A DNA stretch of 62,618 bases, the filler included, from Sphacelaria rigidula (lineage: Eukaryota): the NCBI GenBank assembly GCA_964200075.2. It is 8 parts of 8 records of this genome, joined end to end, with 100 filler letters (N's around TTAATTAATTAA, not from the genome) between each part and the next. Parts side by side here need not be neighbours in the genome. Positions count along the whole stretch, not along the records: positions 23,521 to 31,260 come from CAXNAA020013610.1; 7 more parts are not named here. One strand, given 5' to 3'. This document shows, one piece after another, positions 4,144 through 49,300 of the stretch. The number at the start of each line of letters is the position of its first letter. The first letter of the stretch is position 1. The position numbers and the translations under genes were made by a program. The notes under the pieces were generated by a model. That model was not told where the DNA came from. It saw only the letters and a program-made list of their open reading frames with translations, and searched no databases.

Positions 4144-5303
4144 GCGTCGAAGTGTTTTTTCTCTCAGCGCAAGCTAGCGCTGTAGCTACTCTGTTGGTTA
4201 TTGAGAGAGGGGTTGGTGAGAACGTTGGAACATCGTCAATCTCTTGACGATCACCCCCGAACACCAGCCGAGCCTTTGCCTTCATAACGTAACCATGTTC
4301 GTCAGTTTTTCACTTACAAACTCACTTGGAATCGACCGTTTTCTCTCCCTCCGGCTGTAAATCCACAACTGTCCGAGTGTTGTTATGTTGCAATCCTTCC
4401 ACCTCTCTGTTCATTGCATCAGCCCATACTTTCTTGAACTGAGAATTTGATACATTCTTTACCGTCTTGGGTGCTGCTTCTATCTCACCAAGAGTAGTAA
4501 CACATGGGATCGACTGCAACTCAGACTCCCCTGATTTTCTCGGGTCGTCCTTGCCGGCCAGCTGAGCCAAAATCCGATCCGTGGCCAACAAATCACCGTC
4601 GACGCCCACACACTGTGATCATCTTCTTGCCGCAGTAAATCAGGAACGCGTTGATGCAGTCACTGTTCTTGGCCTTGTTGCTGTAGCAGTCGTGTCTGCT
4701 GCCTGGTCCGACCAAGCGTCGGCTCAACCGAATCTGGTTAGCTCGCGGCATCCTCGCCATCGACAGACAACCCCTCCGACGAGTCACGATCACACGACGG
4801 TGTAGACGATGAAGACGACGTAGGCGATGCACATGACTACTCCACTATGTTCTCGCCGTCGTCGTTGCCTGGTTCCTACTCAGGTTCCGACCGCTCATCT
4901 CCATGCTGTTCAAGTTTCTCAGACACTGCATCACCCGGAAATCCCCCCCCCCCCCCCCCCCCCCGCCCCACCCCACCCCCCACCAACCCACCCCCCCCGC
5001 GTCCACCCCCTTCGCCCCTTCTGCCCCNNNNNNNNNNCTCTGGTTCCCCCCCCCCCTCTTCCTGCTGTTCAAATTTTTCAAACCACGCCCCCCCCGGAAA
5101 CCCCCCCCCCCCCCCCCGCCGAGGTCCGACTCATCGAAATTAGAGCCCTCGACATCGCTCTCCCCGTGTTCTGCATTCTGCGAAGTTTCCCCCCGCTGCC
5201 TAGAAAACGGAACCGCTGGCTGTGAGGTTTAGGGGGGTAAATGACACCAATTGACATTGCGAGTAGTGATCACGTATCTATCTTTCGTGTGCATTTTCAT
5301 GGA
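4144..5303 (-). pseudogene. Inverted copia segment: integrase C-terminal region, linker and RT N-terminus
   Basis: Minus strand encodes YVITTRNVNW...APKTVKNVSNSQFKKVWADAMNREVEGLQHNNT...KAKARLVFGGDRQ..TFSPTP...HFD. Confidence 0.85.
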
Positions 5304-6497
5304 GTCACGAGGCTACGTGTAGCCAGGCCCCGAGTGAAAACATTCCTGTGCATATGCGGTCGCCGCCAGGTCTAGGTGAACGGACAGGTACTGTCGTACA
5401 CCTGAGGAAACGTCTGAACGGGATTCGACAAACGGCTAGAGAATTGTTTGGTAAGCTGGGGAAAACTCTGAAAGGTCTGGGTTTCGAGCAGAGCTTGGCT
5501 GACGCGTGCATATACAGGCTGATGGACGGAGAGGAGTTGAAGGTTCTGGCTGTGTTTCATGTCGATGACATGCTCGTGGTGGGTGATGAGGCTGTGTGCA
5601 AGAAGTTGGCTGCAGATATCAACTTTCACCTTCCGCCGGAAAAATTCGAAGAAATGGTCTTGTATGCGGGGTGCGAGTACAGGCACGACCTCAAGAAGGG
5701 CACTCTGAAGTTGTCACAGACTACATATATCCGACAACCTCTAGACAAGTTTTCCATCATCAGGACCGCCGCGACCCCCGTGAATGTTTCACCTTCTTTC
5801 AAGGTTGATGAGCAAGAGGACTTTAGGGGAAGGTATCGCGAGGCGGTGGGATCGCTGATGTGGCTCTCTACCAACACTCGCTCGGACATCGCCGATGCCG
5901 TGAGAGGTGCGTCCAGGCACAACGAGAACCCGACATCGGAAGGCTGGCGCAAAGTGCTGAAGATTTACGGATACCTGAAGACTGGGGTAGATTTAAGGAT
6001 CATGTATGTCCAGGGTGCGGGCGATGAGTTGGTAGCGTATGCAGATGCCGACAACGCAAAATTCGCCGATCGGCGTTCCGAGTCGGGAGGGGCAATATTT
6101 TCTGTGTGGCTGTGGCTGGATTTTCTCTCCTACTCGGAATAATGTTACGCTGTCTACGACGCAGGCTCAGTATCTGGCGATGGAGGACTTGGTGAAGGAC
6201 GCTCTTATTGTGAAGGCAGTGCTGAAATTCACGCGAGCGCAGAAGAAGTAGTTCTGAATCCCAGTGACAAGTATACGAGGAGAACCAGGGGGGCATTCAG
6301 CTTGCTAATAACCTACGAAGCTGCCACAACAGCAAGCACATAGATGTACGTCATCATTTCTTGAGGGAGTTGGTGTCAGAGCAGATCGTTCGAGTGCAGT
6401 ATGTGACATCATCCCAGCAGCGTGCTGATGTCTTGACAAAACCTTTGTATGTGGACAGCTTTAGATAGCACACGAATGCTTTGATGAACAAGTAGTA
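5304..6497 (+). pseudogene. Copia reverse transcriptase (C-terminal part) and RNase H
   Basis: ORF 5348-6142: LRKRLNGIRQ, GFEQSLADACIY, VFHVDDML, YREAVGSLMWLSTNTRSDI, YADAD..DRRSESG; continues via frameshifts. Confidence 0.9.
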
Positions 6498-16469: not shown

Positions 16470-19400
16470 TTACGCAAATTTTATCGACTCAGTTTCACAT
16501 ATGTCGTGTCTTTCGCTTACATTATTTTCTGCCTCGCCCGAAGTCCCGACACCCTCTGTCCTACGCCCCTCACGTCCACGCTCCGCACGCTCCGGGGATA
16601 TTTTCTCCCCCGAAGGTTTTGATGTTCCCTGCCCCGTCCAAATATCGATGGGTTTTCTTTCCCCCCTATCCCCGACCCTCGACGCCGTCCTACCATAGCC
16701 TCTACTGGTACCGCCTCGACCCGGCAGTTGACCTTCGCTTGACCATATTCCCGGAGGAGCTGCCGGCATGGTACTGCTCCGCTGTAAGCTCCGTGACAGC
16801 GTTTGATCGCCACTGCCTCGGTTCGCACTGCTGCGGTTGTGACCCCGTCGCTGCCTACCTGGTTCGGATGTTTGCGCTGAGATTCCGCCGGAGGTCAATA
16901 TTCGTTGCGCAGCTTCCGCTGCCTCCGCCTCTCTTTGCCTGCCTGGTTTGGGTGTCTTATCTCTGTACTCAGCTCCGCCTGCTTCCGCTGAGACTCCGCC
17001 GGAGGTCAATATTCGTTGTGCAGCTTCCGCTGCCGCCGCCTCTCTCTGCTTGCCTGGTTCAGATACCTTGTCTATGTCCTCAGCTTTGCCTGCTTCCGCT
17101 GAGATGCCTCCGGAGATCAATACTCGTTGTGCGGCATCCGCTGCCGCCGCCTCCCGCTGCCTGCCTGGTTCGGACGACTTGTCTGTGTACTTAGCTTTGC
17201 CTGTTCCCGCTGAGATTCCGCCGGAGGTGGATAACCCTTTTACAGCTGCCGTTGCCGCCGCCTCTTGCTGCTTGCCTGCTTTAGATGCCTGGTCTGTGTG
17301 CTTAGCTTTGCCTGTTTTTGCTGAGATCCCACCGGGGGTCACTATTCCTTGTGCAGCTTCCGCTGCCGCCGCCTCTTGCTGCCTGCCTGCTTTAGATGCC
17401 TGGTCTGTGTGCTTAGCTTTGCCTGTTTTCGCTGAGATTCCACCGGGGGTCAATACTTCTTGTGCAGCTCCCGCTGTCGCCGCCTCTCGCTGCCTGTCTG
17501 GTTCAAATGTCTGGTCTGTGTGCTTAGCTTTGCCTGTTTTTGCTGAGATCCCACCGGGGGTCGATACTTCCTGTGCAGCTGCCGCTGCCGCCGCCTCTCC
17601 CTGCCTGCCTGCTTTAGATGCCTGGTCTGTGTGCTTAGCTTTGCCTGTTTTCGCTGAGATTCCACCGGGGGTCAATACTTCTTGTGCAGCTCCCGCTGTC
17701 GCCGCCTCTCGCTGCCTGTCTGGTTCAAATGTCTGGTCTGTGTGCTTAGCTTTGCCTGTTTTTGCTGAGATCCCACCGGGGGTCACTATTCCTTGTGCAG
17801 CTTCCGCTGCCGCCGCCTCTCCCTGCCTGCCTGCTTTAGATGCCTGGTCTGTGTGCTTAGCTTTGCCTGTTTCCGCTGAGATTCCCCCGGAGGTGAATTC
17901 TCCTTGTGCAGCTCCCGCTGCCGCCACCTCTCGCTGCCTGCCTGGTTTGGATATCTTCTCTCTGTCCTCAGCTCCGCCTGTTTCCGCTGGGATTCCACTG
18001 GAGGTCAATCTTCGTTGTGCGGCTTCCGCTGCCGCCGCCTCTCGCTTCCTGCCTGGTTTAGATGTCTTGCCTATGTCCTTAGCTCTGCCTGTTTCCGCTG
18101 AGATTCCGCCGAAGGTCACTATTCCTTCTACAGCTACCGTTGCAGCCGCCTCTTCCTGCCTGCCTGGTTCGGACGTCTTGTCTGTGTACATAGCTTTGCC
18201 TGTGTCCGCGGAGATTCCCCCAGGGTTCACTATTCCTTGTGCAGCTGCCGTTGCCGCCGCATCTCGCTGCCTGCCTGGTTTAGATGTCTGGTCTGTGTAC
18301 TCGGCTTTGCCTGTTCCCGCTGAGATTCCGCCGGAGGTCAACATTCGTTGTGCAGCTTCCGCTGCCGCCGCTTCACCCCGCCTACCTGGTTTAGATACCC
18401 CGTCTGCGTACTCATGTTTGCCTGTTTCCGCTGAGATTCCGCCGGAGGTCAATACTCCTTGTGCAGCTTCCGCTGCCGTCGCCTCTCGCTGCCTGCCTTG
18501 TTTAGATGTCTGGTCTGTGTATTTAACTCTGCCCGTTTCCGCTGAGATTCCGCCGGAGGTCAATACTCCTTGTGCAGCTTCCGCTGCCGCCACTACCGCC
18601 GCCACCGTCGCCACCGTGACAACAGCGGACGCCGGGGAGATAGTAGCAGTGCCGCCGTCAGCTGTCAAAGTTGTATCGATGGCCCCTCCACGAGTTGGTG
18701 ACGAGTTTCCCTGCGCGGTGCCTCTTTGCTGTCCGCGTTTCCATGACGCTTGATTGTCAATGCCTCGGCCTGCACTGCTGCTGTTGTTATCCAATCGCTG
18801 GCTACCTCGATCGGGTGTCTCGTCTGTGTACGCAGCTCGGCTTAGTCCCAATAGCATATCGCTGCCAGGCGATCTTCGCTGTGTAGTCGCCGCCGCCACC
18901 GCTGCCCCCGCCGTTCCCGCCTTCGCCACCTGCAAATAGGGCGGCGGAGAGGCGTCACCATTGCCACCGTCCACGATGTCACCCGCAGAATTCCTGTTGG
19001 AGACTTTCCGAGAGGTCGACGACGGGTTCTCCGGGGAGGGAGGAGCTGCTCGTGCGGTACGAGTCCGCTGTCCGCTTCCGCGTAGAGTTTGATCGCGACT
19101 GCTTTGACCCCCACTGCTAATGAAATTATCGTTTCGTTGGCTTCCTCGTTCGAATGTCTCGCCTGTGCACCCAGCTCGGCCTATATTCGCTGGGACGCCG
19201 CCGTGAGACTCTCCTTGTTGTGTAGTAGCTACTGCCGCCGCGGCTGCCGCTGCTTCCGCTCCGGCCGCTGCCCCCGCTGCCGCCGCCTCCGAATAGGGCG
19301 GTGGGAGAGAATCATCGTCCCCGCTGTCCGAGGTTTCAGCCGCTGAACTCGAGTCGGAGACCTGCCAATACATCGACGGTGAATCCTCCGGCGGTGGATG

Positions 19401-21034
19401 GTCTATTCTCGTCGCGTCACGTGACAAAGGAGGCCGTCCGTGACCCCCTCCGTTCGATAGCCTTTGTTGTTGGTCACTTTTCTCCCCTCTTGAGCTTGAA
19501 ATGCCCGCCCTCTTCATGGCGGGTAGATTCACATCATCAGCGCTATTACTTGCGACACCACCATCTCCCAGACTCGTTGGTGCAGACGGCCCACCAGCGA
19601 CCGGTTCACATTCACTTGCGCGTTGTCTCGGAGGGTCTTCTCGCGCAGTACCTCTTCGTGGCCCGCTTCCCGGCAAAGATTGGTCTCCACTCTCTCGGTC
19701 CGCGCTGCTGCAATCGTGATCCTCGTGCTGTGTGCCTGGTTTGGTAGTCTCATCTGTATTTTCAGATCGATCTCTTCCCGCTGACATGTTGCCGTCAGAC
19801 ACTCTTCGCTGTTTAGCTGCCGCTGATCCAGGCACCGCTGTCACCTCCGTCGGATAGGGTGGCGGAGGGGCCTCATCGTCGCCGCTGCCCAAGGTGTCGG
19901 TGGCTTGCGTCGGGTCGACGACCTTGCGTCCACCGTTTACGCCCGACCTGCTGCTGTTGCGGACCCCTCGCTGGCCACCTCTCTCGGCTGTCCTGCGTGT
20001 GTACCCAACTTGGTCTATTTCCGTTGAGGCGTCACCTTGAGCAGATATTCCTTGTCTTGCCATCATCATCGCCGCTTCAGCCGCGGACGGCGTCGGGGAG
20101 ACAGCATCGTCGCCGCTCTTCGTGGTTTTAATCGTTGAAGTTTGGCCCATGATGTCCGCCCAAACTGTAGGCGAGTCCGCCGGCAATTGCCTGTCTCGTC
20201 TAACTATATCACGAGTTAAAGGAGATTGTTTACGATGCAAATCGCCCGATTGTTGTCGGCAGATTTTCCCCCCTCCCGGAGTTGGAATTCCCATCCCACC
20301 CTTCGCCAATCCATGTCCTGCATCAACGTTAACGCCGTCAATTATGTTGGTGTGGTAGCCACTGCCGCCGCCGGCATCTCTGCCGCCACCATCACGGCCT
20401 CCGCTCCCATGAAGATTCCCCTTCTTTGGAGATTTCTCTTGAAAGTATGAGTCGATCCACTGTAGCTTCGCGGGTGCAACCGCGATAGGGCTGCAGTGTG
20501 GAGCTGCCACGCCGCTGCCACCCGTGCCAGACGCTAACTTCTCGTCTAAATGAATCCCCGCTTGTCTGGGCGCCGTTGCAAATTTAGCTACCGCGTGGCT
20601 TGAAACATTGCCACCTTCGAAACTGTTGCGCGTGCTCCTTTGTGCGCTTGCCTCGCTGTTGAAAATACCTCTGTCAACCTTCTGGGGGACCGGAACCGGA
20701 TAGATATTCGACGCGAAGTGTCCCAGAGTGGTCTTATCAAGCGTGCCAAGTGCAAGATCACGATGCGAGTTGCCGTTTTTTCGCACAGGACTCCGACCGC
20801 TCGGAAGCAGTTCGTCGTCGTCATCCTCGCTACTACTCTGCCTCGAGTCCCCTGTCATCCACGGTCTCCAGTATGTTTGACCTCTGTCATAGCTAGTCCC
20901 ATTGCTGCTCAAAAGGAGTGCACCTTCACTAGCGCTTCTGCGACGCAGCGCAGGAGACGGACCTTCGACACGTGTGATTTGCCGCTCGCTTCTGGATGCT
21001 CTGACATCTCCACCTCCACCTTTGCAATCCCCCC
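16470..21034 (-). CDS. Very large (~4.5 kb) exon of a low-complexity tandem-repeat protein of unknown function
   Basis: 1538-codon stop-free ORF; acceptor AG at 21036-21035 in phase with upstream exon; 3' end either stop at 16470 or donor GTAAGC at 16520. Confidence 0.8.
16860..18590 (-). repeat. Coding tandem repeat, 111 bp / 37 aa, ~15.5 units
   Basis: Unit GGISAKTGKAKHTDQASKAGRQGEAAAAEAAQGIVTP; period measured 17283 to 17394. Confidence 0.95.
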
Positions 21035-21308
21035 CTATTTTTCCAGGAATAACGATAAAAAAAACACTGTTCAGTGATAGCCTCATGACATGTTCAAAAC
21101 GGTAGGCGGTGTCTGATCACGGATATCATTTGCAAGGCTCTGGAAACAGCTTTACACAATCCTGTAGCTCTGCTGTAGCGACCCAGTTTCTCTCACCACC
21201 ATCTCGTGAGCCGCGAGCTATGTCAGGCATGGGCGACAGCATTTTTGGTCAACACATAAAAAAAAAAAACATCGCAAGCTCTGAAAGACAGTGAGCATGT
21301 AACGTTAC

Positions 21309-23520: not shown

Positions 23521-23629
23521 CATGGGGATTCATTCATCACGAGTCAACTTGTTATACTAAAACCAAGTAATTTCCTGACGAATCATCATTTGTCCTAACC
23601 TTGGAAATTTTTCTTTCGGCAGACCCTTG
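23521..23629. mobile_element. End of a P-like element (related sequence at ~52944-53030)
   Basis: Ends CAGACCCTTG like 12397-13018; shares tcacgagtc..atactaaaaccaagtaatt..gacgaatcat with 52944-53030. Confidence 0.55.
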
Positions 23630-26166
23630 GTGATGGCGTAATATACTAGATCAAGTAAGTGCAGCAGGCGCCAAAATGTTCGCCAGGAGGAATGTGCCGA
23701 CGATTCTGCCACGTATGATAGGTGTGATGGGACGATGAAACATGTGGATGTCTGCGCGGTGTGAGATTACTCGCTATGGGTCGGCAGTATCCACAGGCAC
23801 GAATCCCACACTCCCAGCAGGTGCGTTGTACTTCCTCCAATGTTAATACACGTAATACCTACTCCCTTGGCTGCCACGACTCCTTTCGGAACAACGTCAT
23901 TGTTGGAACCTCATCGCCACATCACAGCTGCCGTAACATAGTACGTGGAAAAACCGCCCGTGCTATCCTCTACAACAATACAGCAGAGTGTCATTTTTAT
24001 TTTCAACTCGCGGAAGTACTTTGCGCCGGGTTCGGCACCAGAAAGGTACATCAGAAAACATTGTTCCGAAAGAAGGCGTGGCACGCAAGGGGGGACACCA
24101 GAGAAATCGTACTGAGGCTTGCCCTGTCCCTCCTTTGGCTCATATTTTCATTTTTTCTCGCATACCTCGAGAAATTCGAAATTAGCATCGAATCACCTGT
24201 ATTGTGGCGAAACAATAACGGGAAAGGCGATGCTATGGGCTCAAGGAACAACGTGTTCGGGAGATTGAGAATAGAGGATATGATGAGGCCCTTGACATTG
24301 CTGAGTAGGATATCGACGTGTAGCTGTGAGCACACATTAGTGATTGAGGCAAAGGAAAGCACACACGGCGCGGAAGAATGGCTACGTTCAAGCGAATCAT
24401 TACCGAAGTCGAAAACAACACTTCGTGTTGTCTCTCTGGTGCCAACATTCAACAATCACCTCAAAACTCGAAAAATTATGCTCTGCGTGGCTTGGATTAT
24501 TGCCACAGAGCTTCGGCCCGCCCAGCTCGTACCATCTTCGTTTTCGACGCTCCAGGGGGAGGGGTGAAATGCCATCATCTTCGACAATATCGACCTGACT
24601 CGGTTTCAGGAGGACAATCCCACTCCCGCTCTTCAGGATCTCCCAGCAAATTCAGAAAAAAAGGCTAAAAACTGCAGAGCAGAAAGTCCTGGGGCCCGTT
24701 TTGTGGCGAACATTCGAGAATCATCAAGGGATATCACGAGGCCAATCGATCATATTTTTCACAGACGAGAATCCGAACTGCGCGGAAATGGCACGTACAG
24801 TAGTGGAGGTGAAGTTCCGTCGTTACTGTACCTCAATGAAGAAGCGTTTTCATCGAGATTGTATCAGGAAAAAAATTGTTGTCGGAAACGAAACGACACA
24901 CGATGCTTCTCAAGTGAAAATTGACTTCATCATCATGATTCATCTGAAGAGCGCACCAAATGACAAAACATAGATGGCACGAAATTCATCGCCAGGACGA
25001 ATAAAAGTCAAGTCACCCACTCATTTTTGTCGCTTACAACAGACATTACGCACTTCCGCACGTATGTTAGTGGGCTGGCGATGAATTATGCCAAAATACG
25101 CCGTAGGGGACTATCAAAAAACGATATATTTAAAAAATCATGTATATTTTTATTTACTTCTTGTCGATCTACAGCTGCGAAGTCCCGAAACAAAACAAGT
25201 AACACACTTTTCTCGGCTCTCCTCCCCACCCTCCACCCCACCAGGACACTTTGTACCATTCCGCCCTCTGTTCCCTCCGCGCAATGGAACGGTCAAACTT
25301 ACCACTAATCATGCCCCCAACTGCCCTCTTCGGTCTAGCACGCTGTATTTACAAGAAGCGGACCACAAAGAATATAAACATCGATCGACCCTGCTTTCTT
25401 CCAGGTTATGAAGATCTTCAACTGCTGGGTTGCGACGAACCCGTCCGCACGCTGACCACGTACTGCGGAACGGGGTGAACAATACCTCTACTCTATATCT
25501 TATCTTATCCCTTCATTTGCATCACAGTCTCTCTCAGCTTCATGGGAATCAAGTCAGTCGCAATATTCTTCAACACACGCATGGAAAGAAAAAGAAAATG
25601 ATCGAACAATAAAAACACGGCCCACGGAAAAATGAAGCAGACCCACGGCAACTATTATCAAAACACGCGAAAAAAAATCAAGTACCTGAGGCGTTCGGTA
25701 CGTCCCCGTGCTCGACTCAGCAACTTCGAAGGCACATGGGCTAGCACCAATTTTCGCCTGGGTTTTTGTTGTAAGTCAGAAATCACCTAGAAGCTTGATC
25801 TATCTCATCTCGAAGCATACCGTACTTTTCTCTTGAAACTCGTTGAAAATCTCATGTACTGAAACCATCAAATTAAATGGGTAAGCCTCCTCCCCCCACA
25901 GGAATAGATCACTATCAAGCGCTGACCCTCTTCGTGAACCCCCCGCACGTTCCCGCTTGTACTCTTTGCGACACATCGCAACCATGCCTCACCTTCTGTT
26001 TCCAAACCTTCTCAAAGCCCACACACGTATATCGCAGTACAATATCAGCACGCGCTAAACTCATCATGTTTTCTAATCGTATTCCCTCCCCTCCCCCCCC
26101 CTACGGACTCTTCCGTTTCAGGTTTCCAAGTGCTGCGACGTTTTTAAATGCGCCCGTAACAGCGCT

Positions 26167-26747
26167 TCAAAGTGCAATCACTGCACTGGGTGGCGAGACG
26201 AAGGTTGCCCCACCATTTCCTCCACTGTAAAACATGAGCAGCTCCTCATCTGCCCCGATCCCGATACCGCTGGCATCCACGGCCCCCGAGCCACCTTCAT
26301 GTATGTCTTCGGTCATGAGGTCCGCGAAGAGGTGGTCGACGGCGTCCTCGGCGCTCGTCAAACACCCCCCTTCCGTGCTCTCACCCTCTCCCTCCCCGTC
26401 ACCTCGTTCGCTGTCGGAGGAGGACGTTGAGCAAGCACCGGACATGAGCTCCTCGTCTTGATCCTCCCCATCTGTGCAACCATCGCCTATCGAGCCGTCG
26501 GCGCTGCTGACGCTACGCGGCGCAAAGTCGGTGCTGCCGTCCGTTTTTTGTTCCATCTCTGCCCCTCGTTGGGTCAATGTTCCTTTCGTGTCGACCACGG
26601 TCCGCTGCGTCAAGGCAGGCGCGGGAACACTTTTGCTGTCATGGTCGTTTTCGTTGTTGATCCTGTGGCCATGCAGGACGACGGCTGTTGCAGGGGGTCT
26701 TGCAGTCTGCTGTTGCTTCTGTTTCATGCTGGGTTTTGTCTCCGCTG
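26167..26747 (-). CDS. Acidic C-terminal region of the bZIP factor, reached after removal of the unconventional intron
   Basis: Same frame as bZIP ORF; ..AAETKPSMKQKQQQ...DGEDQDEEL...AVDHLFADLM...DEELLMFY...SAVIAL*; in-frame TGA at 26763-26761 lies just upstream of the 3' hairpin. Confidence 0.75.
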
Positions 26748-27092
26748 CTGGAAGACTGGTTCAGGCCGGGATCACGGATCTTTGCACCCCCCAGCGCCAC
26801 CACCCCTTCCCCTCTTTCGGCCGACAGACTTTGTCCCGATCCTCGGTACGCTTTACCCCACACGTGACTTCCCCCGGATCCGCCATCCCTCCCCCCCCCA
26901 TCCCTAAAGGGACAGAGGTGGGGAGCAACGAGAGGAGGGGGGGAGGGTACGCAGTGGGGTCGAACACATAACGAAGAATTGAGAGAAAGGGACAGGTCGG
27001 CGGGCGGGAGAGGTGGGAGGGTGGCAGGGAAGGAAAACACAAGATATGTGTGATGCTACCCCGGCCCGATTAAAAGTGTTACGCAAACACTG
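26748..27092 (-). other. Putative IRE1-type unconventional intron (345 nt)
   Basis: 5' hairpin CGCGAC-[CAG|CAGU]-GUUUGCG; 3' hairpin GUCUUC-[CAG|CAGC]-GGAGAC; inner 12-bp and outer 8-bp stems; in-frame fusion on removal. Confidence 0.8.
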
Positions 27093-27732
27093 CTGGTCGC
27101 GACATATTAAAGCATGAAGAAGTAGCCATGGCAGAATAGGCAGTGGACCCTGCAACCGTCGCCGAAGATGAAGCGCCGGTGTTGCTGTCGGGGGCCAAAA
27201 GAATCATGGAGTCGAAAGACGACGATAACGACGATGCGGATGCCCGGCAAGAGCAAGGCGCTGACGCCTGAGCCGGACGCGGGTACCAAGTGTACGGCGG
27301 CCGCGGCGCAGGGGTGGTGACCGCAACGGCGGGGGTCCCCGCGTGGTTGTTGATGGTGCCACCAGACTCCAAAGTTTTGATGCGGCGGCGCAGGCGGCGG
27401 TTCTCGTCCTCCAGGGATCCCACCTGCACCTCGAGCTCGCCGATGCGGTCGCTCTTGCGCTTGCGGGAGAGAGCGGCTGACTCCCGGTTCCTGAGCATCC
27501 GTTGCTGCTTGCGCTCCTCCTTCTCGTCGGAGGATCCACTAGCGGCGGCACCCGGAACACCCGGCCTAGAGTGCGCCGCCTGGGCCACGAGCCGTGCGCG
27601 GGCGGCGGCCAGCTTCTTGGCCCGCTCGGCTCGTGCCTGTGCGGCGTTGGGATTCATGAAGGAAACCTCGTCCAGGATATCGTTGCGCGAGGTCCTTGCT
27701 GTCGCGAACGGGGATATGGGTGTAGGTAGCAT
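27079..27732 (-). CDS. bZIP transcription factor, HAC1/XBP1/bZIP60-like (unspliced 217 aa; spliced 406 aa from this Met)
   Basis: ERKQQRMLRNRESAALSRKRKSDRIGELEVQVGSLEDENRRLRRRIKTLE = basic region N-x7-R plus leucine heptads; ends SRPAVFA*. Confidence 0.92.
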   Translation of the reverse strand: MLPTPISPFATARTSRNDILDEVSFMNPNAAQARAERAKKLAAARARLVAQAAHSRPGVPGAAASGSSDEKEERKQQRMLRNRESAALSRKRKSDRIGELEVQVGSLEDENRRLRRRIKTLESGGTINNHAGTPAVAVTTPAPRPPYTWYPRPAQASAPCSCRASASSLSSSFDSMILLAPDSNTGASSSATVAGSTAYSAMATSSCFNMSRPAVFA

Positions 27733-30700
27733 GGTGTTCGTAACGTCTACGCTTCCTCCTTGTGGATTCCCAGATTTCCCTCCGCTTGCCCCTGCTTCGA
27801 AAACGTTGTCCGTCTCGTTTCCTGTCGTTCACTCCCCTCGGAACTGAAAATATCGTGATGACGAACGACGAACCAAAACGATTACCAAATCTTGTTATAA
27901 GGAAACAGTCGGATCAAACGGCGTCCGGCCTCTTGGCGATTGAGGAATTCGATCACCCCGGGGGATTCTCGGGTGGTGCTGTGTGTTGTGTAGGCGTGAG
28001 TTCGTGGATATCCATATCACGAACGGAATATCAGCGCGGTGGAGGTATGGTTGAAGTGATGAGTCACCTAGAGTTCAGCAATCCATCTGTTTTGATGAAG
28101 TGGTGAAGGGTCCGCCCGCAAACAGGAAGGGGGAGGAGGAGGGAGGGGGGGGCGAGGAGGAGGGTTGAGTACGTGGTCAGAAAATTCAGCACATACCGTA
28201 CGAGTACTGTAGACGCACCGTGATCGAAAAACCCGTAATCAAATCTGACTCATTTTGGGAGTAGGACGAGAAGCGGAAAATCATGCGGGGGATTCGCTCG
28301 GGTGTTTTTGAAGATACAGTATCTCAGGATTTCCGGTCGATGAATGTAATTGGGCCACGGTTTGATGTGCGACATCACAAAAATCATCATGGTTGAACCG
28401 AGTATCATGGGTACATCCTGCAGCAGAAGTACGAGGTTGCCAAACGAATCCCCGTTGCTGGAAAATCCCGAGACTAGACGTGGTGCCACGGCACTGTACG
28501 GAACGATAGAGCGAGCCGCACACGACGCTGGTACCGGCGGGATGAGTACTGCCGAGCAGAGACCTAGATTCAACCACTCCTGGTGAATGTGTCAAGAGCC
28601 CACCAGAAACCATGGTTGTTGGCACTTCGTTCGTGTTACCTACTCGTGAGTGGTTCATGTGGAGTCGTATGGTTGGATATCTAATGTACGTACTTCAGTA
28701 TGTATAGCGAACGCGGGTACATATAAGCACCGTGTACAGAAAGAACCTTCAAAACCACATATCATGCCGTACAGCATAGCAGGGTGAGCCACAACCGGGG
28801 CTGGCATCGGCGGGATGAGCACTACTGAGTCAAGCAAAATTCCATCAATTTTCATGATCGTCGTACGGAGAAGATGAACTACGAACTTCAACCCAAGGAG
28901 ATAATAATGTGTTTTTGTGCCGTTGTACCAATGTACAAGGCAATTTAGAGCGCAGGGTCATGAGCTCAATATAATAAGACAGTTCAACAGTACGCGACAT
29001 AAAATGGCGTGAATCTTGGGCGGACATGGTACAGGCGCGAGATACCTGCAGCGACGACATCAGAGCGCGCTGTGGTGACGCAGACAAACGGGTTTTCATC
29101 ATGCGACTGCATTGTTCTGTGCCATCTTTCTCGACGCCAGACGAACTAGCCATGTTCCAAGTTGACCGCTGTACAGGTTGTGTAGAAAATGAGACGGAAG
29201 GACCCCGTGCCCTGACCGCAGAGAGTTATATTATATGTGGGTCATACTACTGTGTGAGACACACATCTGCAAGTGCTACTGCAGTGAAGAGCGAAAGCCG
29301 GCTTTGTGGCAAATCGTTAACTGACGACAGCGAACGAGCACACGGTGATGTTGGGCATTGAACTGCGCAGTCTTTGCGGTCGAAAATGCTACGGCTACCA
29401 GCTACAGTCCGCAAATCGTACTGTGTGACGCAACTTGTATCTGGGCTGTGTTCGAAGTTGTAGGGCAGGACATGGCAGGGAAGTAGCTATACTAGAGGAC
29501 CCCCAGCTTCTGCGCGCAGACCGCTTGGGGTTATGGGTATACTACGGTGGTGGATGGGCTCATCTACAGGGGCTGCTTGTACTGCAGTCAAAGGGGGAGG
29601 GAAGGCTCGCTGCGAAACCTCGAGTGACAGCACCGAAAGAGGGCATAGCGGTGTCAGCCACCGAATCAACAGTCTACACATCTGAAATATTGCTGCAACT
29701 GTCAGCTAGCCTCGAAGTACAACGCTGTAGTTGAACACAGCAGTACAAAGTATTACGCAGTTTGTCCATCTCATTTTCAAGTCATGCTTCACGTACATTT
29801 TTTTCACGTCCTTGTATCTCACACACGGCGCCAAGAACAGCACACCCCGACTACTGTCGGATCAGATAGATCTCAACGTCTATCGCGCGTACTAGCGGAC
29901 CCATCTACCGGTTGACTGCACATGAGTACGCGTCGTGAGAAGGCTCACCTCGAATGATACCGTAGCAGTTGAAACTTTCCAGTGTTGTGAGAGCAAGATC
30001 TTCAGTTGTGACGGTGGGAGGCTCCAACCCAAATCCAGAACATGTGACAGAACTTTTTCATAGGGGAAGACACGTGGACAAACGAGAATAGCAATAATGA
30101 CGCATAGAACCATTCCACGGGTTCTTGAAGTTCCGCTGTTTGAGAGTTCGAATATACGGTGAATAGACTGGAAGAGGTATATAATGTAATTTTTCACCTT
30201 GGAGGGTATAGTGGAGAAACGCGAACTCAACTGATAGCGGTTTTCTCGTCTGTCTGGTGAAAAACATCACCATTATAGCGCAGTCACTGCAGGCAAAATA
30301 TCGGCACCGCACCGAATGATTAAAGCTACTGTATTCACAATCCCCGAATACCCTTCGTGCAGCCTTCTTAGATGGTATGTGAGTTGCCAGCAGTGGTTGT
30401 ACTACTGTTGGCGTGAAGTGCAATCGCGGACAAATCTAGGAGAATTTGACTTGCTCTCGAAGTCAAGAGAAGGAAAACTCCAGTATGAGTAGCAACCTAT
30501 ACCTGCCTGCTGTGCTGCACAGACTGCACGCCACGACACCGTCTGCACGATAGGTGATGTCTACAGCTCGTGGTCTGGTGAGTATATCTAAACGCACGAC
30601 TGACATAAATCAAGCGTATAAAATATATACAAACTTTGTGTTGATCTTTTGAGGGCCTCTTGTTTTGTTCGGCAGAAATCTACTGCCTGCCGCTGACGAC

Positions 30701-31034
30701 GCCAGCAACAACAGCAAAGATGAAAACCTTAGCGATTTTCCAAACGCAACGCAGCTGCCCGGCTGTCTGCGCAGATACAACAACAGATCACAGGATCATG
30801 AAGCAGGTAGTGTGCTCGTGGAAACAGACCGTATGGTTATAACCAATGATGTATGTAGTCATCAAGTCACGCGTCAGATAACTCCTTCATTCATCTCCTG
30901 CTTGATCGGAAAAAAAAAAGGTGCGAAGACACGCCCTAATGAAAGATTTCATAGATGCTCTCCGCATGACTATTACCAGTATGGCCCGTATGGATTTCCC
31001 TACTGGCCTGTATCCGTACGCCCCCCGTAATTCC

Positions 31035-31116
31035 GCATCTCATACGAGCTGGGCCAGCAGTATATGCCGCATTTACATCTCCAACCATAACTCATCAAGT
31101 GTACCAAATCAGCTCG
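31035..31116. repeat. Dispersed repeat shared in reverse orientation with 39201-39280
   Basis: ctgggccagcagtatat.ccgcattt.catctccaaccat.actc.tcaagt.taccaaatcagctc. Confidence 0.75.
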
Positions 31117-32899
31117 ACTCGAGCATATCGCTGTGAAGTGCAGACCAACCTGGTAATGCACGGCACTGCCGCTGGTCGATTGGCGAAGTTTTAGCGATGA
31201 TAATATTATACTGCACTGAGTACCGGGAACGTCTCGTGTCGTTGCGTGATAGCGTGTCTGNNNNNNNNNNNNNNNNNNNNNNNNNNNNNNNNNNNNNNNN
31301 NNNNTTAATTAATTAANNNNNNNNNNNNNNNNNNNNNNNNNNNNNNNNNNNNNNNNNNNNCCACGGCTTATACACTGCCTCATGGGTGTCTCACCATATT
31401 AGCACGACGTAGTACGATCATCCCCATTGTGCGGAGTTCAGGTTCTCCCACGCCGCACGACATGATCTGGCTTGACTATCATCATGGTTACCGCAAAAAA
31501 ACGCAAGTGCGCAAAACAATCGGTAACCTGGTTGCCTAGCTTACGCGGTCAGTGGCGTGTTTTATAGCGTCAGCGCTAACCGACGCCAACCTCATCGGGG
31601 GTCCGCCCCTACAAAACCGGGACGGACCACCCCGGGTTCTCGCCGGGCCAGGCTAAAGGGTGGGTATGTGGGGACGGGGTTTGGTTGTTTCGGAGTGATT
31701 TGGCCACGAGCAGACAACAAACATAGATATATATATATCATGTGTCTACCCTGGTACAAATTTCACAGCAATGTCACGTATTGCATTATGTTTAGTTTCG
31801 AAATGTTTCCTCATATTGCAGTCGGTTGGGAATAATTGCCAAAGCGCATTCATGTAATGTTCCTGATTTGGAAAACTACCCGAACCGTTGGCGGATATAT
31901 AAAATGCCCATTCAGAACAACTCGTCGAACGTTGACGAACATCTGTTGGTGCAGAGCAAGTTGACCAAGCATTGCGGACAATCGACAGCCTCCTAGAAGA
32001 GCTCCTGAGTAACCCCGCAGATTGTTTCCCAACTTAGGTGTGCCTACATGAATATTCCCCGCCTGAACTGGTGCATCAGTGGCAAGAGCGCTCTAACTGC
32101 TGAGAAAATATGGCTCATGAGCAGAAACCCTTGCTCCCTTAAGCTACAGCTTGTCACGGACGGATACACTCCACTCCTTGTCCGTAGCCCCTTGAGCAAC
32201 CGCGGCATTCGTTCCGAGATTATGGAGACTGACAGTTCAACTAGTGCGGTTAGAAAATTACCTTGACATAAGCATACATGACCCCCACTAGTAGGCCGTT
32301 TGGGCGTGATTACATACTTAGTTCTATATTCTTTGTTGAGACCAATAGGATCACGAGGTGAGAATTTCCTGCCTAGACCACACGTTCAAAACGCGAAAGG
32401 CGATCGGGATCTCTATCCCTTCTCCTACTCTCAGCGCCACGAGCTCCCACTTGGGCAGCAGGAGGGTGTAAGGGGGACAAGCCCGCCATTGCGGCTTCAT
32501 GTGCATTGCTTGGGTGGACGTCACGGTATATCGTGCTCGTTCTGCTCAGTTGACTATCGAGGTGGAGAACAAAACTACGCGAAGGTCAGGCACAAGATGA
32601 AAACAATTCCCAACCACTTGTGAACGCACCGCTTACAGTATCCGGATGATCGTGTCGGTCAGATGATCGTGTGGATACAACAGCCCCGTTCTGTGTACTC
32701 AAACAGATTACTGCCCTCTTGCACTTGAGTAGGTGAGAAGAAGATGGAATATATGTGTTTCAAGTATTTTTACGTCACTTTTGACACGTAGAACATTTAT
32801 TTGATGAAAAGGCGCGAGGGAAATGAGTGAGGGAGGAGGGCGTCAAGCACCAGCCTGTCTCGACTGCCTACGATCTAAACTCTACTGTCGGCGCAAAAT

Positions 32900-43340: not shown

Positions 43341-46300
43341 TTGTAGCAGGTATTACGTTGAGAGGTGATGCCATGGTGAAGAAATGAGAGTGATGGAAGA
43401 TGGGGGCGAAGGGGGTGGAGTGGGGGATGACCTGAACTGTTGGCAGGACTTATAGTTGAGCAGACTCCTGCGGTGTTGCGAAGCGATGCTGCGCAATGCT
43501 TTCCGAATACGAGAGGAAAGCCTTGTACTGGATTGTCGCGAAATCCCTACATCATCGATCTTCGATTAAAGGAATTGCAAGAAACGAAGTCACACCAGCA
43601 AAGATTCTACAGTACCTACGAATCGAATACATGACGTCAATAGTCATCCAATAACTCGTGTCACATATTTGCATATACACTAATTAAACTAGTCCGATTT
43701 TTTCGTCGAATACTGATGTGAAGTTGTAACTCGCTATGATCGTCAACAATATTACACAAGGTATGGCCTGCGTCGGCGTTATATCATGAACGAGTGACCT
43801 TTCGAAATATGAACCGGCCAGTCGTCCGGCTCTCGATTTTGTTCACTCTCAGGTCTTCGGATTATGCCACAGCAGCAAGCGACTATTGACCCTCTCATTT
43901 GTTTAGCAGTCGCTGCGGGTGGCACTTGATATTTGGAACTATGCTCATTCACCAGATTGCCCGCTATACTATATCTTCGTCACTAAGTTGGTGAGGCCTG
44001 CACTTGTTGTCGTACGCGGATGCTTTGTACATACGAGATGAAAGCCATCGCACCGAGGACAGAATGTGAAAGGATCGTCGACAATTCAACAGGTCTCAGG
44101 TCGTCGCCCCTACAGCTTAGTGTTGATCCGTTGAATGATATTCACATGGTTGATTGTATCGAAAAGTCACGGGGGGACCCGCCTCGCAGTCCACGAAAGG
44201 GTGAACGGCGTCATGTCGGTAACGAACAGAAACAGTCCACTACCAGCCAACATCATATTTCAAACCCGATGATATTGCGTGAGATCGGGAAGGAGCGAGC
44301 CTCATGACATGTAACGCCGACGATGGCGGGTGCTGGTCCATCTGCTCAAGTGAATGAATGTACTCTGCAAAAAAATAGTAGACACGGTGTATTCAAATTT
44401 TCGATCGCATATGGGATGCTACCATCCCCTCACACTCTACCATGCCTTTATCGGAAGGATCGAACGCTTCCATAGGCACGCAAAAGCTCTTGCAGCGTAG
44501 CTTTATCAGAATGTGTCGGGTCTCTGTCGCACAACTTGAACCAACATCGTTGGGTGAACCTCAAAGATAGTCGGGTGTTCGGAACCTGCAAACCGCGATA
44601 CGAGAACATAGCTTCATCGAGTCGTTCGCTCCATTGGTGTGTCTGACGGAAGATGTTGGGGATACATCTTTGAAAGATCTGCCACCCAATACCCACCTGA
44701 GGGGAATCGTTGACAATCACCGCGTTACAACGTTAAAGGTCAATGACGAGGAGGACGACAAGGCGGCTCCATCCATCATCGTGCGTGTCCACGCCGCGAT
44801 GGATAGCACGATGATGCGAATGGTGGCTGAAGGGAGGCGGCTCTAACAACCGTTTTGAGGATGTCTGGATCATGTCGCGCAAATGTTTTGGGGTCGCAAA
44901 TAGAACGTGCTGGAGTGCCTCAGTATGACGGTTGGAGAAACGGAGGGTCCCACGCGCCGATATTTGCGTCGGTATTGCACTGTAGCACAGGCACACTCAC
45001 GCCTTATTTTGCGTACTGCACCTGTAACTTAACCGTCGCGTGTTACTACGGATTGTATGGAATGCCGCACCATAGTTTGCAGGTCGGTCCTGGGTATTCT
45101 CCAGTCCTCCCCATCTGTAGTGGATGCTTGTCCTTGGTCGGTTGTGCTGCACAGTTCGCCCGTTGATCTGGTCGACATGAAGTCATATTCCAGCCAGCCA
45201 ACCCATGAAGGTGTCGGTCGTTTGCACAGTCTCCAAAGGTTCGTCTATGGAGACACTTCTTGAACCAATCTGAAACTCGCACCGCTTGTCTCCGTCCGTC
45301 ACCGTTAATTCTGCGTTGCACAGGTATGAACAAGGTAACCTCGACGATTGTGGAGCATGTTCTCGTCGACGAAGTTCGGGGTATCGGGGTATAGATCGCT
45401 TGTGCAGGACGAAGAGCAGAAATACCAAACGCTGGGACCCACTGCTCTCTGCACGAAGCTGACGAAGGCGTTTGGGGCGGTGAGTGCCCTTCTTTGATGC
45501 TCTGGATGATGCTATCTTTTACTGTCATGATGCACAACGTGTCTCTGATACGGTACTGGCTACGGACCAGTGTCACTTGACCAGGCCGTGTTTTGGATTC
45601 ATTTTTCGATCCACTTTGTGCTGTGGGAAAGGAAAACCCTGATCCGACAGGTCCTGATTTCAGTCACCGCTACAGGCATCTCAAAATCGAGATTCCCGGT
45701 ATTTTTTACTACATTTAACAGTCCAATATATCAGGAGCATCGAGTTTGAGATACCTTTTTGTTGTTGAGAATACCGCCCTTTTCCTCGGAATCTTTGTTT
45801 TGCACTGCACTTTGTACCATTTTTTATTTTTTCACCACCCTTTTCCTCGGAATCTTCTTTTTACACTGCACTTTTTCGATCGAAAAAAGAGTTGCCTTAG
45901 ACCGTTTCGTACGCTCCTTATTCGTTTGGGCTCGTACTTTCCACTTTTGAGGCATCTGATTCGAGGTTTTGGTCGCAAAACAAAGAATATCGCCATCACA
46001 CGTCTTGGACACTTTTCATCGCCTCGCCGGGAAGGAGGGGTCTAGCCCACTTTCGTGATTCGCTCTACTCCGAGGTTCCGAGAACGGCCTCCGGACAAAA
46101 ATACGGCTGGAGAATAAAATGCGGCGTCTGCAGGTATAAATACGTTCAGACACCACATGTATTATACGTGCAGGCACCGGTATTTTTTCCAGCCGCACTT
46201 TTGTCCAGAGACCCTTCTCGGAGCCGTAAGGGCGTATCTACAACACACAATTTTTCGATCGCAAGAGTGCGCTGTAAGACAAAAAATATCAACAGGTGGT

Positions 46301-49300
46301 GATTTTTACTCGGATGGCGATAGTTGAAATATCAACCTTAGAACTCGGAATGTTCCTCTTCCACCACACACATGTCAGCAGAAAATATTGTGCGTTGACA
46401 CGGCCCAAGACACGGCCTTACCAATAATACGTTGGCCCCGAACGAATTGGTGCAGCGGAGTGCAATTGGTTTGCTTGACTGCGTTTGGGTCCGAGCCAAT
46501 TTGCACGCTCCCGATGGAAAAAGGGTGAGGATTTCGTGATACGGTACTCGGTTCACTTGTATTCAGTACAGACAGTGCAGTGCCGTCTGCACTGTCTGCA
46601 TAGTGTGTGCATGTTCCGTACAGTGGGATGTGAAGAAGGGGGCAACATGCAGAACAGACAGCACGTTTCGACCATACACTGCGTAGAGGAGAATACTCAG
46701 AAGATGTAATCAACATGCAATATCATACGGGGTTCATGAAGGCGTGCGCAAATTCCTCGCCCACCATACCACGCAGTTCCGTCGCCAACTCCTACAATAG
46801 AAGATGCTCAAGTTTTTGCCGGCCAAAAATGAAGGCATCATCCCTGAACGATGGTATTTCTAGTTCCCAATCTCGTAACCTTCTGATGGTTGAGTTGTGG
46901 GGTTCGATTCTCGGAGCGGTCAGGGAATTTTTCTTACACCNNNNNNNNNNNNNNNNNNNNNNNNNNNNNNNNNNNNNNNNNNNNTTAATTAATTAANNNN
47001 NNNNNNNNNNNNNNNNNNNNNNNNNNNNNNNNNNNNNNNNTTTCCTTTTTTTTTTTCTCAGTCAGCTTCGTCTGTACGTTATCTCTCTAACGAGCCCAAC
47101 TGTAGCATGATCGTGAGCATTGAAATACCCACACGATTAAACGTCCGTAACGATACAGACTTATGGGACAGAGGAAGTATTAATTTACAAAAAGGTTCAA
47201 AAGGGTAGTTCTCAGAGAGTTTTTTTTTTCAGTCTAAATAAGCGGCCTAAGGGTGCGGGGTTGTTTTTCATTCTTCATCATTGAATTTCATGGCAAAATG
47301 TCCTAGGGTGGAAAAGTAGTTTTTCTCATCATTCGCCCGTACCGATTCTCCACGCAAAGCAAACTTTGAATTGCAACTCTCAAAATTTAGGTGAGAATCC
47401 GCCTGCAATGTAGAGATCCACTTTTAGGCTAGCCCACCTCTCGATTCCAGCCGACGGGGTTTTGCCCCAGTACCCAGTCGCACGTACAAGAGAAAAACGA
47501 AAAGCATCTAAACGCTTCAATATATTGAATGATAGTGGAAACACTGTGCAAAGCATAGATAGCTATTTCGTGTGATTTGTAAATTTAAATTCACTACCGA
47601 TTTTATCCGATTGGTTATCACTACTGAGGAAAACAAGCTAACCCCCATATTCTCTGGATCACGGATCTGAGAATGTTTCGTTTTATTCAGTACACACATC
47701 GCGGCAATATTGTGGCATATGACACGATGAAGAAACGTTTTTAATTCTTTACAGCGTCACAGAGTTGCAAACGTCACGAACCCAGAATATACGGTCTTCC
47801 AGTGGAAAACCGCCACCGCATCACCGCCACCAGCAACCGCTCAGCAAACACCTCTTTAGTACAGAACTGTATTCTACAGCTGCATTCAAAAACAGTCCCG
47901 TGACCATCGCTCTGTTTTTTAGCCGTCCCGACTGGTGTTCTACAGCTTTTGTGTGTCTGTTCACGCGAGTCAGGCCACGGAGGGAGTGTCAATTAGCGTA
48001 AGAGGAGGTGAGGTGCTGTTGTCACGTAGCCTGTATTTTGTTGCGAGAGCTATCCCCAAACGTTGCGACTCATACCTGCGGTGCTTCGATCAACGCTATT
48101 CCCCCTATCGTCGTGTCACTGGTTGTGCTTGTATCCCTCTGCTAGCTATCGAGGAAGTTGAAGCTCTCCCCCTTTCACCGTGGCCCAACGTAGGGATAGT
48201 TCGTCATCAGTCCAGACAGAGTAGTGAGGGCAGTCCCATACATACCACTTGTATTGACAAGCTTCCATGGCGGAGTGCGGCGACGTCAAAACGGCGTATT
48301 ATACTCTACTATAAGCCAAATGTGGAACAACCCCACGCACAAGGTACAGTATATAGAAGGCAGCAGTCAACTGTTTTCCCGATGATACGACTGCTCAGTA
48401 GAGAGACGACCAGCACTTGCGGGGATGAATGTGACGTGACTGTTGTCTCTCTGTTGATCATACTTGCCCTGCTGTTGTACTGACAGAACTAATCTGTACT
48501 GACTGAACCGTGTACTGACTGTTCTTCTCGTAATAACTAAATCATACAGTATCGTCCTCGTGTTTTAACTATTTATACAATGCAGCCCTCACCAACTTAA
48601 AAAGGCGATCTTGCCCACTTGAGACATTATGTTTCACAGCATTTTGAGCCGACGTGGAGCAAGGTCGTGAGACCGATCGTGCTGATTCATCTGTAGCCAT
48701 GAGTCGATGTTGTTGATGCGCATGGCCTCCAGCGCTTCGGTGCTTGAGATAGTCAGGTGCAGCATAATGTTGGCATTCAGGCGTACACAAAACCCTCTCG
48801 GCGTTTGAGGCTGGCCGCACGTGTATGTTTCCCAGTTTCTTGTTTGGTCTGGTACGGCAAGTACTACTGTTGTTGTCCTGTCGCTGACTTATCATTGGAT
48901 TAGCCGCTGTGAAAATGCAAACATCAAGTGTGACTCGATGACTCGATGTTGGTGTCCACAACAGAAGTACCGAACTCAACATGCTCGCGGCATGACAGCA
49001 GTTGAGGCGGGTTCTTACCGAAAGTGGCTACGAGTACTGATATCGTTTCTCAGAACGTCACGTTTGAAGCATGATTGACCCAACAAAGTCCAGTTTCGAG
49101 TCACATCGAGACACAGATTTGCCCAGATCGAGGCCCAAAACTGAATACCGCTTCACAAATTCGGCGGTTGTTCAAGTGGTCGTTAGTCCAACATCTCTGT
49201 ACTGCCTCATTGAACAAGGCAACACAACACCTACACACCGAGTCCCGAAAACCCACGAATAGAGATCCACCACTCACACGCATTAGCTCCAGCGCTAGCT

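Follow-up and report, generated by a model that had tools for sequence, protein, structure and literature searches.

Splicing of bZIP mRNAs that depends on IRE1, an endoplasmic reticulum (ER)-stress ribonuclease whose cut ends are rejoined by tRNA ligase, is known in animals, fungi and plants. The intron of XBP1 comprises 26 nt and its removal shifts the reading frame, the intron of Saccharomyces cerevisiae HAC1 spans 252 nt, and in the mRNA of plant bZIP60, a bZIP factor of the unfolded protein response from a photosynthetic eukaryote, IRE1 cleaves a pair of hairpins, and the frameshift caused by removal of a 23-nt intron eliminates a transmembrane segment from the protein. Here we describe a candidate switch of this kind on the minus strand of a 62,618-nt stretch of Sphacelaria rigidula DNA (assembly GCA_964200075.2; hereafter the window, to which all coordinates refer), which joins eight parts of the genome and includes record CAXNAA020013610.1 at positions 23,521–31,260. 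From sequence comparison, we consider it probable, with an appreciable margin of doubt, that the locus is the gene of an ochrophyte alga for a bZIP factor of the unfolded protein response, of the HAC1/XBP1/bZIP60 type, with its nearest named relatives in brown algae, and that its mRNA contains an IRE1-type intron of 345 nt, whose cleavage sites sit on a four-arm junction with the fourth arm grown into an imperfect rod of 114 bp.

IRE1-dependent introns are described as bounded by CAGCAGN loops in short stem-loops (PMC12530127), and the cleavage-loop consensus is C(C/U)G↓CAGC (Peschek et al. 2015, PMC4687415). Among budding yeasts, Candida glabrata, C. parapsilosis and Lodderomyces have HAC1 introns of up to 379, 626 and ~850 nt, respectively (Iracane et al. 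2018, PMC6222058), and the intron of S. cerevisiae HAC1 pairs with the 5′ untranslated region (UTR), thereby blocking translation (PMC8881652). Unconventional splicing of plant bZIP60 is mentioned in the abstracts of PMC4891664 and PMC11077094.

The host gene comprises two coding parts separated by the candidate intron. The upstream open reading frame (ORF) extends from the ATG at 27732 to the TAA at 27081–27079 and yields an unspliced product of 217 residues, in which Pfam identifies bZIP_1 (E 1.8e-10, 41.2 bits with a cut-off of 27.6) and bZIP_2 (E 1.8e-7, 31.5 bits with a cut-off of 22.3). The bZIP columns RNRESAA..SRKR are invariant across 25 aligned sequences. Exon 2 encodes an acidic C-terminal domain of 193 residues with conserved D.L...LM and LLMF motifs. 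In-silico removal of the 345 nt deletes the stop, keeps the frame and joins the exon-2 ORF, which extends the product from 217 to 406 residues, so that the C-terminus is exchanged for a conserved domain with a putative activating role. The features of the gene and its sites are as follows.

27093–27732, minus strand: coding part of exon 1, which ends within an Ala codon, its last base (27093) supplying the first codon position.
27367–27525, minus strand: bZIP domain, residues 102–154 of the 249-residue stop-to-stop frame.
27082–27101, minus strand: 5′ IRE1-type hairpin, whose 3 + 3-bp stem bears a single bulged U and closes the 7-nt loop CAGCAGU (27095–27089).
26748–27092, minus strand: candidate IRE1-type intron of 345 nt (3 × 115), defined by two CAG↓CAG loops, whose removal joins the frames.
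27079–27081, minus strand: in-frame TAA that closes the unspliced frame, 12 nt into the intron.
26738–26756, minus strand: 3′ IRE1-type hairpin, whose 7-nt loop CAGCAGC (26750–26744) is closed by 6 bp, one of them G-U.
26167–26747, minus strand: coding part of exon 2, with its stop at 26169–26167, an ORF with homologues P0033, P0034 and P0035.

The predicted cuts fall between 27093 and 27092 (CAG↓CAGU) and between 26748 and 26747 (CAG↓CAGC), and the intron thus delimited starts with CA and ends with AG, rather than following the GU-AG rule. Both loops fit the CAGCAGN or C(C/U)G↓CAGC type. As in XBP1 (PMC4687415), a bZIP mRNA presents two 7-nt CAGCAG-type loops on short arm stems; unlike the XBP1 frameshift, splicing here would keep the frame and remove a stop, and the lineage is stramenopile, not metazoan. 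The locus resembles yeast HAC1 in that a long unconventional intron, of a length that varies strongly among relatives, lies between two hairpins, and in that the unspliced frame terminates shortly after entering the intron, so that splicing would give the protein another C-terminus. It departs from bZIP60 in its 345-nt, in-frame intron, and the two proteins share the bZIP domain only. Exact-pattern scans for the 5′ site returned five matches in genome contigs and one viral match, which were dismissed as chance occurrences because they lie in bacterial-type or viral contigs without a bZIP motif. A search for tandem repeats in the intron found none.

The intron boundaries can be assessed from relatives with short introns. 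A metagenome scan yielded 12 loci, six of which (L001–L006) carry both sites, with L007–L012 belonging to another, more distant bZIP group. In L001–L006 the two sites are just 49–54 nt apart, and all six possess the same loops, with cores identical to those of the window. The invariant core around the 5′ loop is common to window and relatives, as are the loop and stem core of the 3′ hairpin; in the 5′ stem, the bulge is retained and one pair is altered on both sides (G-U to U-A). Removal of the 49–54 nt produces a single frame that continues from the bZIP domain to the coding part downstream, even for the introns of 49 and 50 nt, whose lengths are not multiples of three, and the spliced frames run into an acidic C-terminal domain. 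Such frames (309–396 residues) were obtained for five of the six loci; L004 was processed with an upstream CCAGCAG, so that none is shown for it, and its relevant 5′ site is the second CCAGCAG, which gives an intron of 49 nt. This restoration of the frame is the strongest indirect support for cuts within the loops.

The same relatives inform on the architecture around the sites. An intron-only hairpin of 5–9 bp is found between the two site hairpins, directly before the 3′ one, in all six loci, and the 10-mer CACTTTTAAT immediately precedes the intron helix in the window, L004 and L006. Exon–exon pairing in the six loci gave z-scores of −4.7 to −11.2 (matched by none of the 100 shuffles of any locus), and their RNAalifold consensus contains 50 pairs, 14 of them changed on both sides, and includes the bulged 5′ hairpin. 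The window differs in that its intron measures 345 nt, compared with 49–54 nt, a length not always a multiple of three, around a 5–9-bp hairpin. As the intron hairpin of the six relatives occupies the position of the rod, the latter would mark the place of an ancestral fourth arm, and we interpret it as the enlarged fourth arm of a conserved junction. Overall, the architecture has good comparative backing in these alignments.

At the protein level, 32 homologues of the exon-1 product were found, and those with a species name belong to brown algae (Laminaria, Ascophyllum, Ectocarpus and Hapterophycus); further relatives stand at 81% and 54% protein identity. The ending ..PAV(F/I)A-stop is common to the 25 aligned orthologues, whose tails otherwise vary. 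This ending is the translation of the 5′ loop plus the 3′ half of its stem, and its sharing indicates that the database entries represent the unspliced form and that the 5′ site is conserved. The RNA hairpin may account for much of the invariance of the tail; both stem strands are invariant, so part of the conservation of the 5′ site could operate at the peptide level, for example through a nascent-chain signal by analogy with XBP1u or bZIP60. A CFN motif also occurs a few residues before ..PAV(F/I)A in most of the 25 orthologues (window positions 27082–27120, minus strand).

Exon 2 is kept as a separate ORF in P0033, P0034 and P0035, with identities of 96%, 77% and 43%, respectively. P0035 starts inside its own intron with 22 Gly/Arg-rich residues followed by TSLPAAET, as in the window, which indicates that the 3′ hairpin and a G-rich stretch upstream of it have been kept. 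The exon-2-type domain (D.L...LM, then LLMF-like) is also C-terminal in P0026, P0028 and P0029 (366–379 residues) and occurs in further stand-alone frames in other organisms. A profile search, in which the exon-2 profile included bZIP columns, gave 665 matches that were mostly generic bZIPs; only P0045, P0047, P0072, P0105, P0125 and P0161 were of the exon-2 type, and none of these six reached back to the 3′ hairpin with certainty. No longer (spliced) protein forms were found among 8000 scored candidates, which is weak evidence. P0028, P0029, P0036 and P0037 run from bZIP through a PAVF-/PAIF-like stretch to the C-terminal domain in one frame of 262–371 residues; they were either assembled from spliced RNA, or their intron is in frame or lost.

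The rod, the outer exon–exon stem and the two CAGCAGN-loop hairpins meet at a single junction in the predicted folds of 396, 661 and 1497 nt, with the following structural features.

26761–27069, minus strand: rod of 309 nt with 114 bp, 22 small internal loops or bulges and an apex loop at ~26908–26905.
27075–27091, minus strand: competing hairpin of 6 bp (27091–27086/27080–27075), intron-only, which starts one base after the cut and is favoured at minimum energy.
27102–27251, minus strand: exon-1 strand of the extended exon–exon duplex in the 661-nt fold, which includes the outer stem (27118–27111) and the inverted repeats I1, I4 and I3.
26588–26737, minus strand: exon-2 strand of the same duplex, which includes 26730–26723.

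A preliminary description of this DNA had proposed a four-way junction that docks both hairpins. Such a junction was formed when the two IRE1-type hairpins were forced (−182.4 kcal/mol), whereas the unconstrained fold has five branches, because the 5′ IRE1-type hairpin is replaced by the competing hairpin. A small hairpin analogous to the latter is predicted in the six short-intron loci. The predicted pair probabilities of the 3′ site stem are 0.44–0.85. The outer stem of the preliminary description (27118–27111/26730–26723) was recovered with eight complementary bases, seven of them paired at minimum energy (mean probability 0.91, minimum 0.43), and proved to be only the start of a longer exon–exon duplex, missing from that account, which extends ~150 nt outward per side. 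Nested inverted repeats reach ~27236 and ~26640. For flanks of 150 nt, the pairing gain amounted to −34.8 kcal/mol, compared with −12.5 (sd 4.6) for dinucleotide shuffles (z −4.8; 0 of 300 as strong), and shuffling of codon order gave z −5.4 (0 of 300 as strong). The coding sequences that flank the intron are mutually complementary over 120–150 nt, both in the window and in each of L001–L006. Following in-silico intron removal, the exons of all seven sequences form one extended hairpin with a loop of 6–8 nt at the joint, reminiscent of the XBP1 zipper, for which the exons are predicted as one extended hairpin after intron removal (PMC4687415).

The exon–exon duplex plus the two arm stems thus resemble the XBP1 bifurcated stem-loop (PMC4687415), with the duplex in the place of stem S1. 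The XBP1-like layout suggested earlier stood as regards this basal exon–exon stem, which can be extended outward, but not as regards an exact set of three stems: XBP1 forms a three-way junction with an intron devoid of a helix of its own, whereas the window has a fourth, intron-only helix of 114 bp within a 345-nt intron. A continuous intron-internal rod is not described for the long HAC1 introns in the available part of PMC6222058. Pairing between the intron and the 5′ UTR, as found in S. cerevisiae HAC1, was absent from the predicted minimum-energy and centroid folds of the 1497-nt transcript.

Within the intron, the rod comprises 71 G-C, 25 A-U and 18 G-U pairs. The helices listed in the preliminary description were all recovered, by sequence and position, in the predicted fold. 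The inner stem (27069–27058/26772–26761; 12 bp with 2 G-U) has a mean pair probability of 0.95, and the nested helices AUCUU/AAGAU, GCCACC/GGUGGC, UGUCCC/GGGACA and ACCCCAC/GUGGGGU have mean values of 0.68, 0.92, 0.79 and 0.99, respectively; GCCGAC/GUCGGC, also present in the fold, is formed in part only (0.40). The contrast between a C-rich first half and a G-rich second half was likewise borne out, with 42% C and 15% G in the 5′ arm and 46% G and 18% C in the 3′ arm. The 396-nt segment folds at −187.1 kcal/mol, compared with −149.0 (sd 5.7) for dinucleotide shuffles (z −6.64; 0 of 100 as stable), and full shuffling of the intron alone gave z −5.8 (0 of 200 as stable). Because pairing might result simply from the succession of a C-rich and a G-rich arm, the arms were also shuffled separately (z −6.1; 0 of 200 as stable), and shuffling in four blocks per arm gave z −4.6 (0 of 200 as stable). 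Among 345-nt windows from both strands of the 62-kb stretch (580 in all), the intron ranks first in stability at −170.2 kcal/mol, followed by one at −163.0, and its GC-corrected residual (z −4.0) is likewise the lowest (0 of 580 as low). Extending the folded sequence to 661 or 1497 nt left rod and junction unchanged. In predicted stability, the sense strand of the rod exceeds the antisense strand by 14.8 kcal/mol (−164.6 versus −149.8), with 18 G-U pairs versus four opposed A/C mismatches; this predicted excess, a single case, would fit a constraint on the RNA and not only a DNA inverted repeat. Rfam covariance models run over 25500–28500 gave nothing near a gathering score, only weak hairpin-like matches, which at the rod apex were miRNA-precursor-like cmscan matches with E 1.6–8.5, far under the gathering scores.

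Comparison over the long intron was possible with run X9, a relative diverged by 1.3% that provides the sole other long-intron DNA. It differs from the window at six intron positions, of which four are unpaired in the fold and the other two changes disrupt pairs, although 72% of the intron is paired. The X9 variant of the intron folds better by 2.8 kcal/mol, compared with a mean change of +6.6 (sd 5.8) for random sets of six changes, of which 6.4% of 500 were as benign; this signal on the rod is suggestive, not significant (p ~0.06). Between the window and the X9 relative or P0033, ~7 of 8 substitutions in exon 2 (26519–26710) alter the amino acid, all in its N-terminal half, and exon 1 of the X9 relative has two substitutions in 640 nt, with the linker part of exon 2 evolving fast. 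Run X10, from another organism, contains a 43-nt piece corresponding to 27060–27102, with three differences and then a C-run, in addition to an identical low-depth piece, and run X11 contributed an identical 180-nt piece only.

In run X1, a contig of 2335 nt with a depth of 942 is unbroken over 25700–27920, including the intron, with a depth of 4 beyond 28227. The adjoining 5′ contig (27952–28088) departs from the genome at 28088, beside a CAG acceptor (..AAAACAG↓AUGG). If X1 is RNA, which is a guess, and bearing in mind that contigs give no local depth, this pattern looks like an mRNA from which a 5′-UTR spliceosomal intron has been removed and in which the 345-nt intron has been kept, which would be in keeping with an unconventional intron that stays in place until a stress signal arrives. 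None of the listed runs containing this sequence is registered as RNA. No spliced joint was detected in the contigs of the four runs (X1, X9, X10 and X11), and contigs show presence, not absence. The departure suggests a putative 5′-UTR spliceosomal intron near 28086–28090, with its upstream exon outside 28400, and the remaining 5′ UTR contains two upstream AUGs (28015 and 28086) that open peptides of 3 and 20 codons.

Taken together, we propose the following mechanism. The unspliced mRNA would direct synthesis of the 217-residue bZIP protein, and splicing would add the acidic domain of 193 residues. The two loops would be held on one junction, with the exon–exon duplex below and the intron helix between them, and as the additional 300 nt are base-paired among each other, the loop–loop distance would be as in short-intron (49-nt) relatives. 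The earlier suggestion that the rod offsets intron length and keeps the sites together is partly supported, in that the four-part layout recurs in the six relatives with introns of 49–54 nt. IRE1 would then cut both sites, and the exon–exon duplex would hold the ends for ligation. After cutting, the intron would leave as a self-contained hairpin, possibly aided by the competing hairpin at its 5′ end, and the exons would close into one hairpin, as in the XBP1 zipper model. Cleavage by IRE1, stress induction, and selection on the pairing of the rod rather than on its mere presence are the steps that we infer.

Several observations weigh against this proposal. The 5′ site hairpin is absent from the minimum-energy fold, with pair probabilities of 0.007–0.35 (0.007–0.02 for its upper pairs), and forcing both hairpins costs 4.7 kcal/mol above the minimum. 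The count of G-U pairs versus A/C mismatches is biased by the folding algorithm. Comparison of the rod with the one close relative (X9) gave a weak signal; in the X9 exon flanks, three of seven changes break predicted pairs, two of them in the exon–exon duplex, and the 741-nt variant is less stable by 4 kcal/mol. In P0028 and P0029 the frame passes directly from the PAVF-/PAIF-like stretch to the C-terminal domain, and splicing may therefore be dispensable in some lineages. Finally, the rod contains 22 bulges or internal loops and may be tolerated without being under selection. This last point leads to the main rival explanation, possible though on the whole unlikely, in which the intron is real and the rod is carried along neutrally, having arisen as a self-complementary insertion, an inverted duplication or a slippage-grown C-tract/G-tract in the loop of the ancestral intron hairpin. 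It would then be harmless because it folds on itself, selection would not maintain its pairing, and it would have no role other than staying out of the way. The short-intron relatives manage with a hairpin of 5–9 bp, which argues that 114 bp are not required; HAC1 introns of yeasts vary widely, from 19 to ~850 nt (PMC6222058); the antisense strand of the intron also exceeds its shuffles in stability (z −3.9), as a DNA-level inverted repeat would; and the X9 polymorphism signal is just p ~0.06. The 14.8-kcal/mol advantage of the sense strand with its 18 G-U pairs speaks against passive carriage, as does a search of the 62-kb window for further copies of the intron sequence, such as an inverted-repeat transposon (MITE) would have, which found none and returned only short low-complexity matches with E at least 0.2. 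Moreover, in P0035, at 43% identity, the 3′ site is still preceded by a Gly/Arg-rich (G-rich) stretch, and the X10 organism has a C-run after the conserved 5′ part, which together suggest, from sequence, that the two-arm design may be old and has not decayed.

A function of the rod itself, such as blocking or pacing of ribosomes, protection from decay of the unspliced mRNA or the excised intron, or provision of small RNAs, was anticipated in part by the preliminary description, which had considered control of translation or stability, and is in our view improbable. The unspliced frame does stop at 27079, 10 nt before the rod base, the unspliced transcript looks abundant, and the apex has the weak miRNA-precursor-like matches; yet nothing among the tests specifically favoured such a function, Rfam matches of this sort are typical of any C-rich/G-rich hairpin, and in the 1497-nt folds the intron is not paired with the 5′ UTR. 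That the CAGCAG hairpins are coincidental, and that the intron is a common spliceosomal or retained one or does not exist, is very hard to sustain. The 3′ end ..UCUUCCAG resembles an acceptor, a GU is found at 27090–27089 and no spliced joint was seen in the contigs of the runs, but use of that GU with either nearby AG would remove 343 or 346 nt and lead to a stop within a few codons. In addition, the intron is retained at a depth of 942 while the adjoining 5′ contig departs at a CAG acceptor, loops and stems are conserved in taxa with introns of 49–54 nt that are otherwise unlike, in which only in-loop cuts restore the frames, and exon 2, which lies beyond a stop, is conserved at the coding level. 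Least credible of all is that the rod is a compositional artefact of a C-rich stretch followed by a G-rich one: the arms contain 42% C and 46% G and several helices are plain C-run/G-run, but the separate-arm and four-block shuffles largely refute this explanation, and mixed-sequence helices (the 12-bp base, ACCCCAC/GUGGGGU and UGUCCC/GGGACA) form with probabilities of 0.79–0.99. Beyond the IRE1-type intron with its enlarged fourth arm, a bolder conjecture, to which we assign little likelihood, is that ochrophytes, including the brown-alga lineage, would run a four-way-junction IRE1–bZIP switch, of which we found no description and in which the 114-bp rod itself is selected as a spacer-neutralising scaffold and, once excised, the 345-nt hairpin would serve as a stress-released RNA, e.g. 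a small-RNA precursor or a protein sponge.

Elsewhere in the window, an ORF on the minus strand at 16470–21116 encodes 1548 residues; it is GC-rich with a strong AT skew and gave no Pfam match at E ≤ 0.001. An ORF on the plus strand (5270–6139) matches the reverse-transcriptase family RVT_2 (E 4.8e-13) and is probably the remnant of a Copia-type retroelement. The next most over-stable 345-nt folds, at ~46001–46345 and 50201–50545, show this stability on both strands and thus probably represent inverted repeats at the DNA level. A purine-rich tandem repeat, AGGAGGGGGGAGGAGG, is present in 2.4 copies at 28124–28164 and matches many unrelated contigs in X1, X9 and X10; it is a dispersed low-complexity repeat.

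A literature search that combined IRE1 with stramenopiles, brown algae, diatoms, oomycetes, Ectocarpus, Phaeodactylum, Phytophthora and Nannochloropsis found no paper on such splicing in the collection searched, and the text of a cross-eukaryote survey from 2016 (PMC4891664) contains none of those stramenopile taxon words. Gene predictors end these proteins at ..PAVFA, and with all 25 aligned entries in the unspliced form, the active factor would be missing from annotations. The same loops and exon–exon duplex, combined with a fourth arm of either 5–9 bp or 114 bp, constitute a natural experiment on RNA geometry, which makes it testable what geometry IRE1 and the ligase need and how an unconventional intron can grow without breaking the switch. 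If confirmed, the finding would extend this switch to a fourth major lineage and provide a marker of ER stress for brown algae and their relatives.

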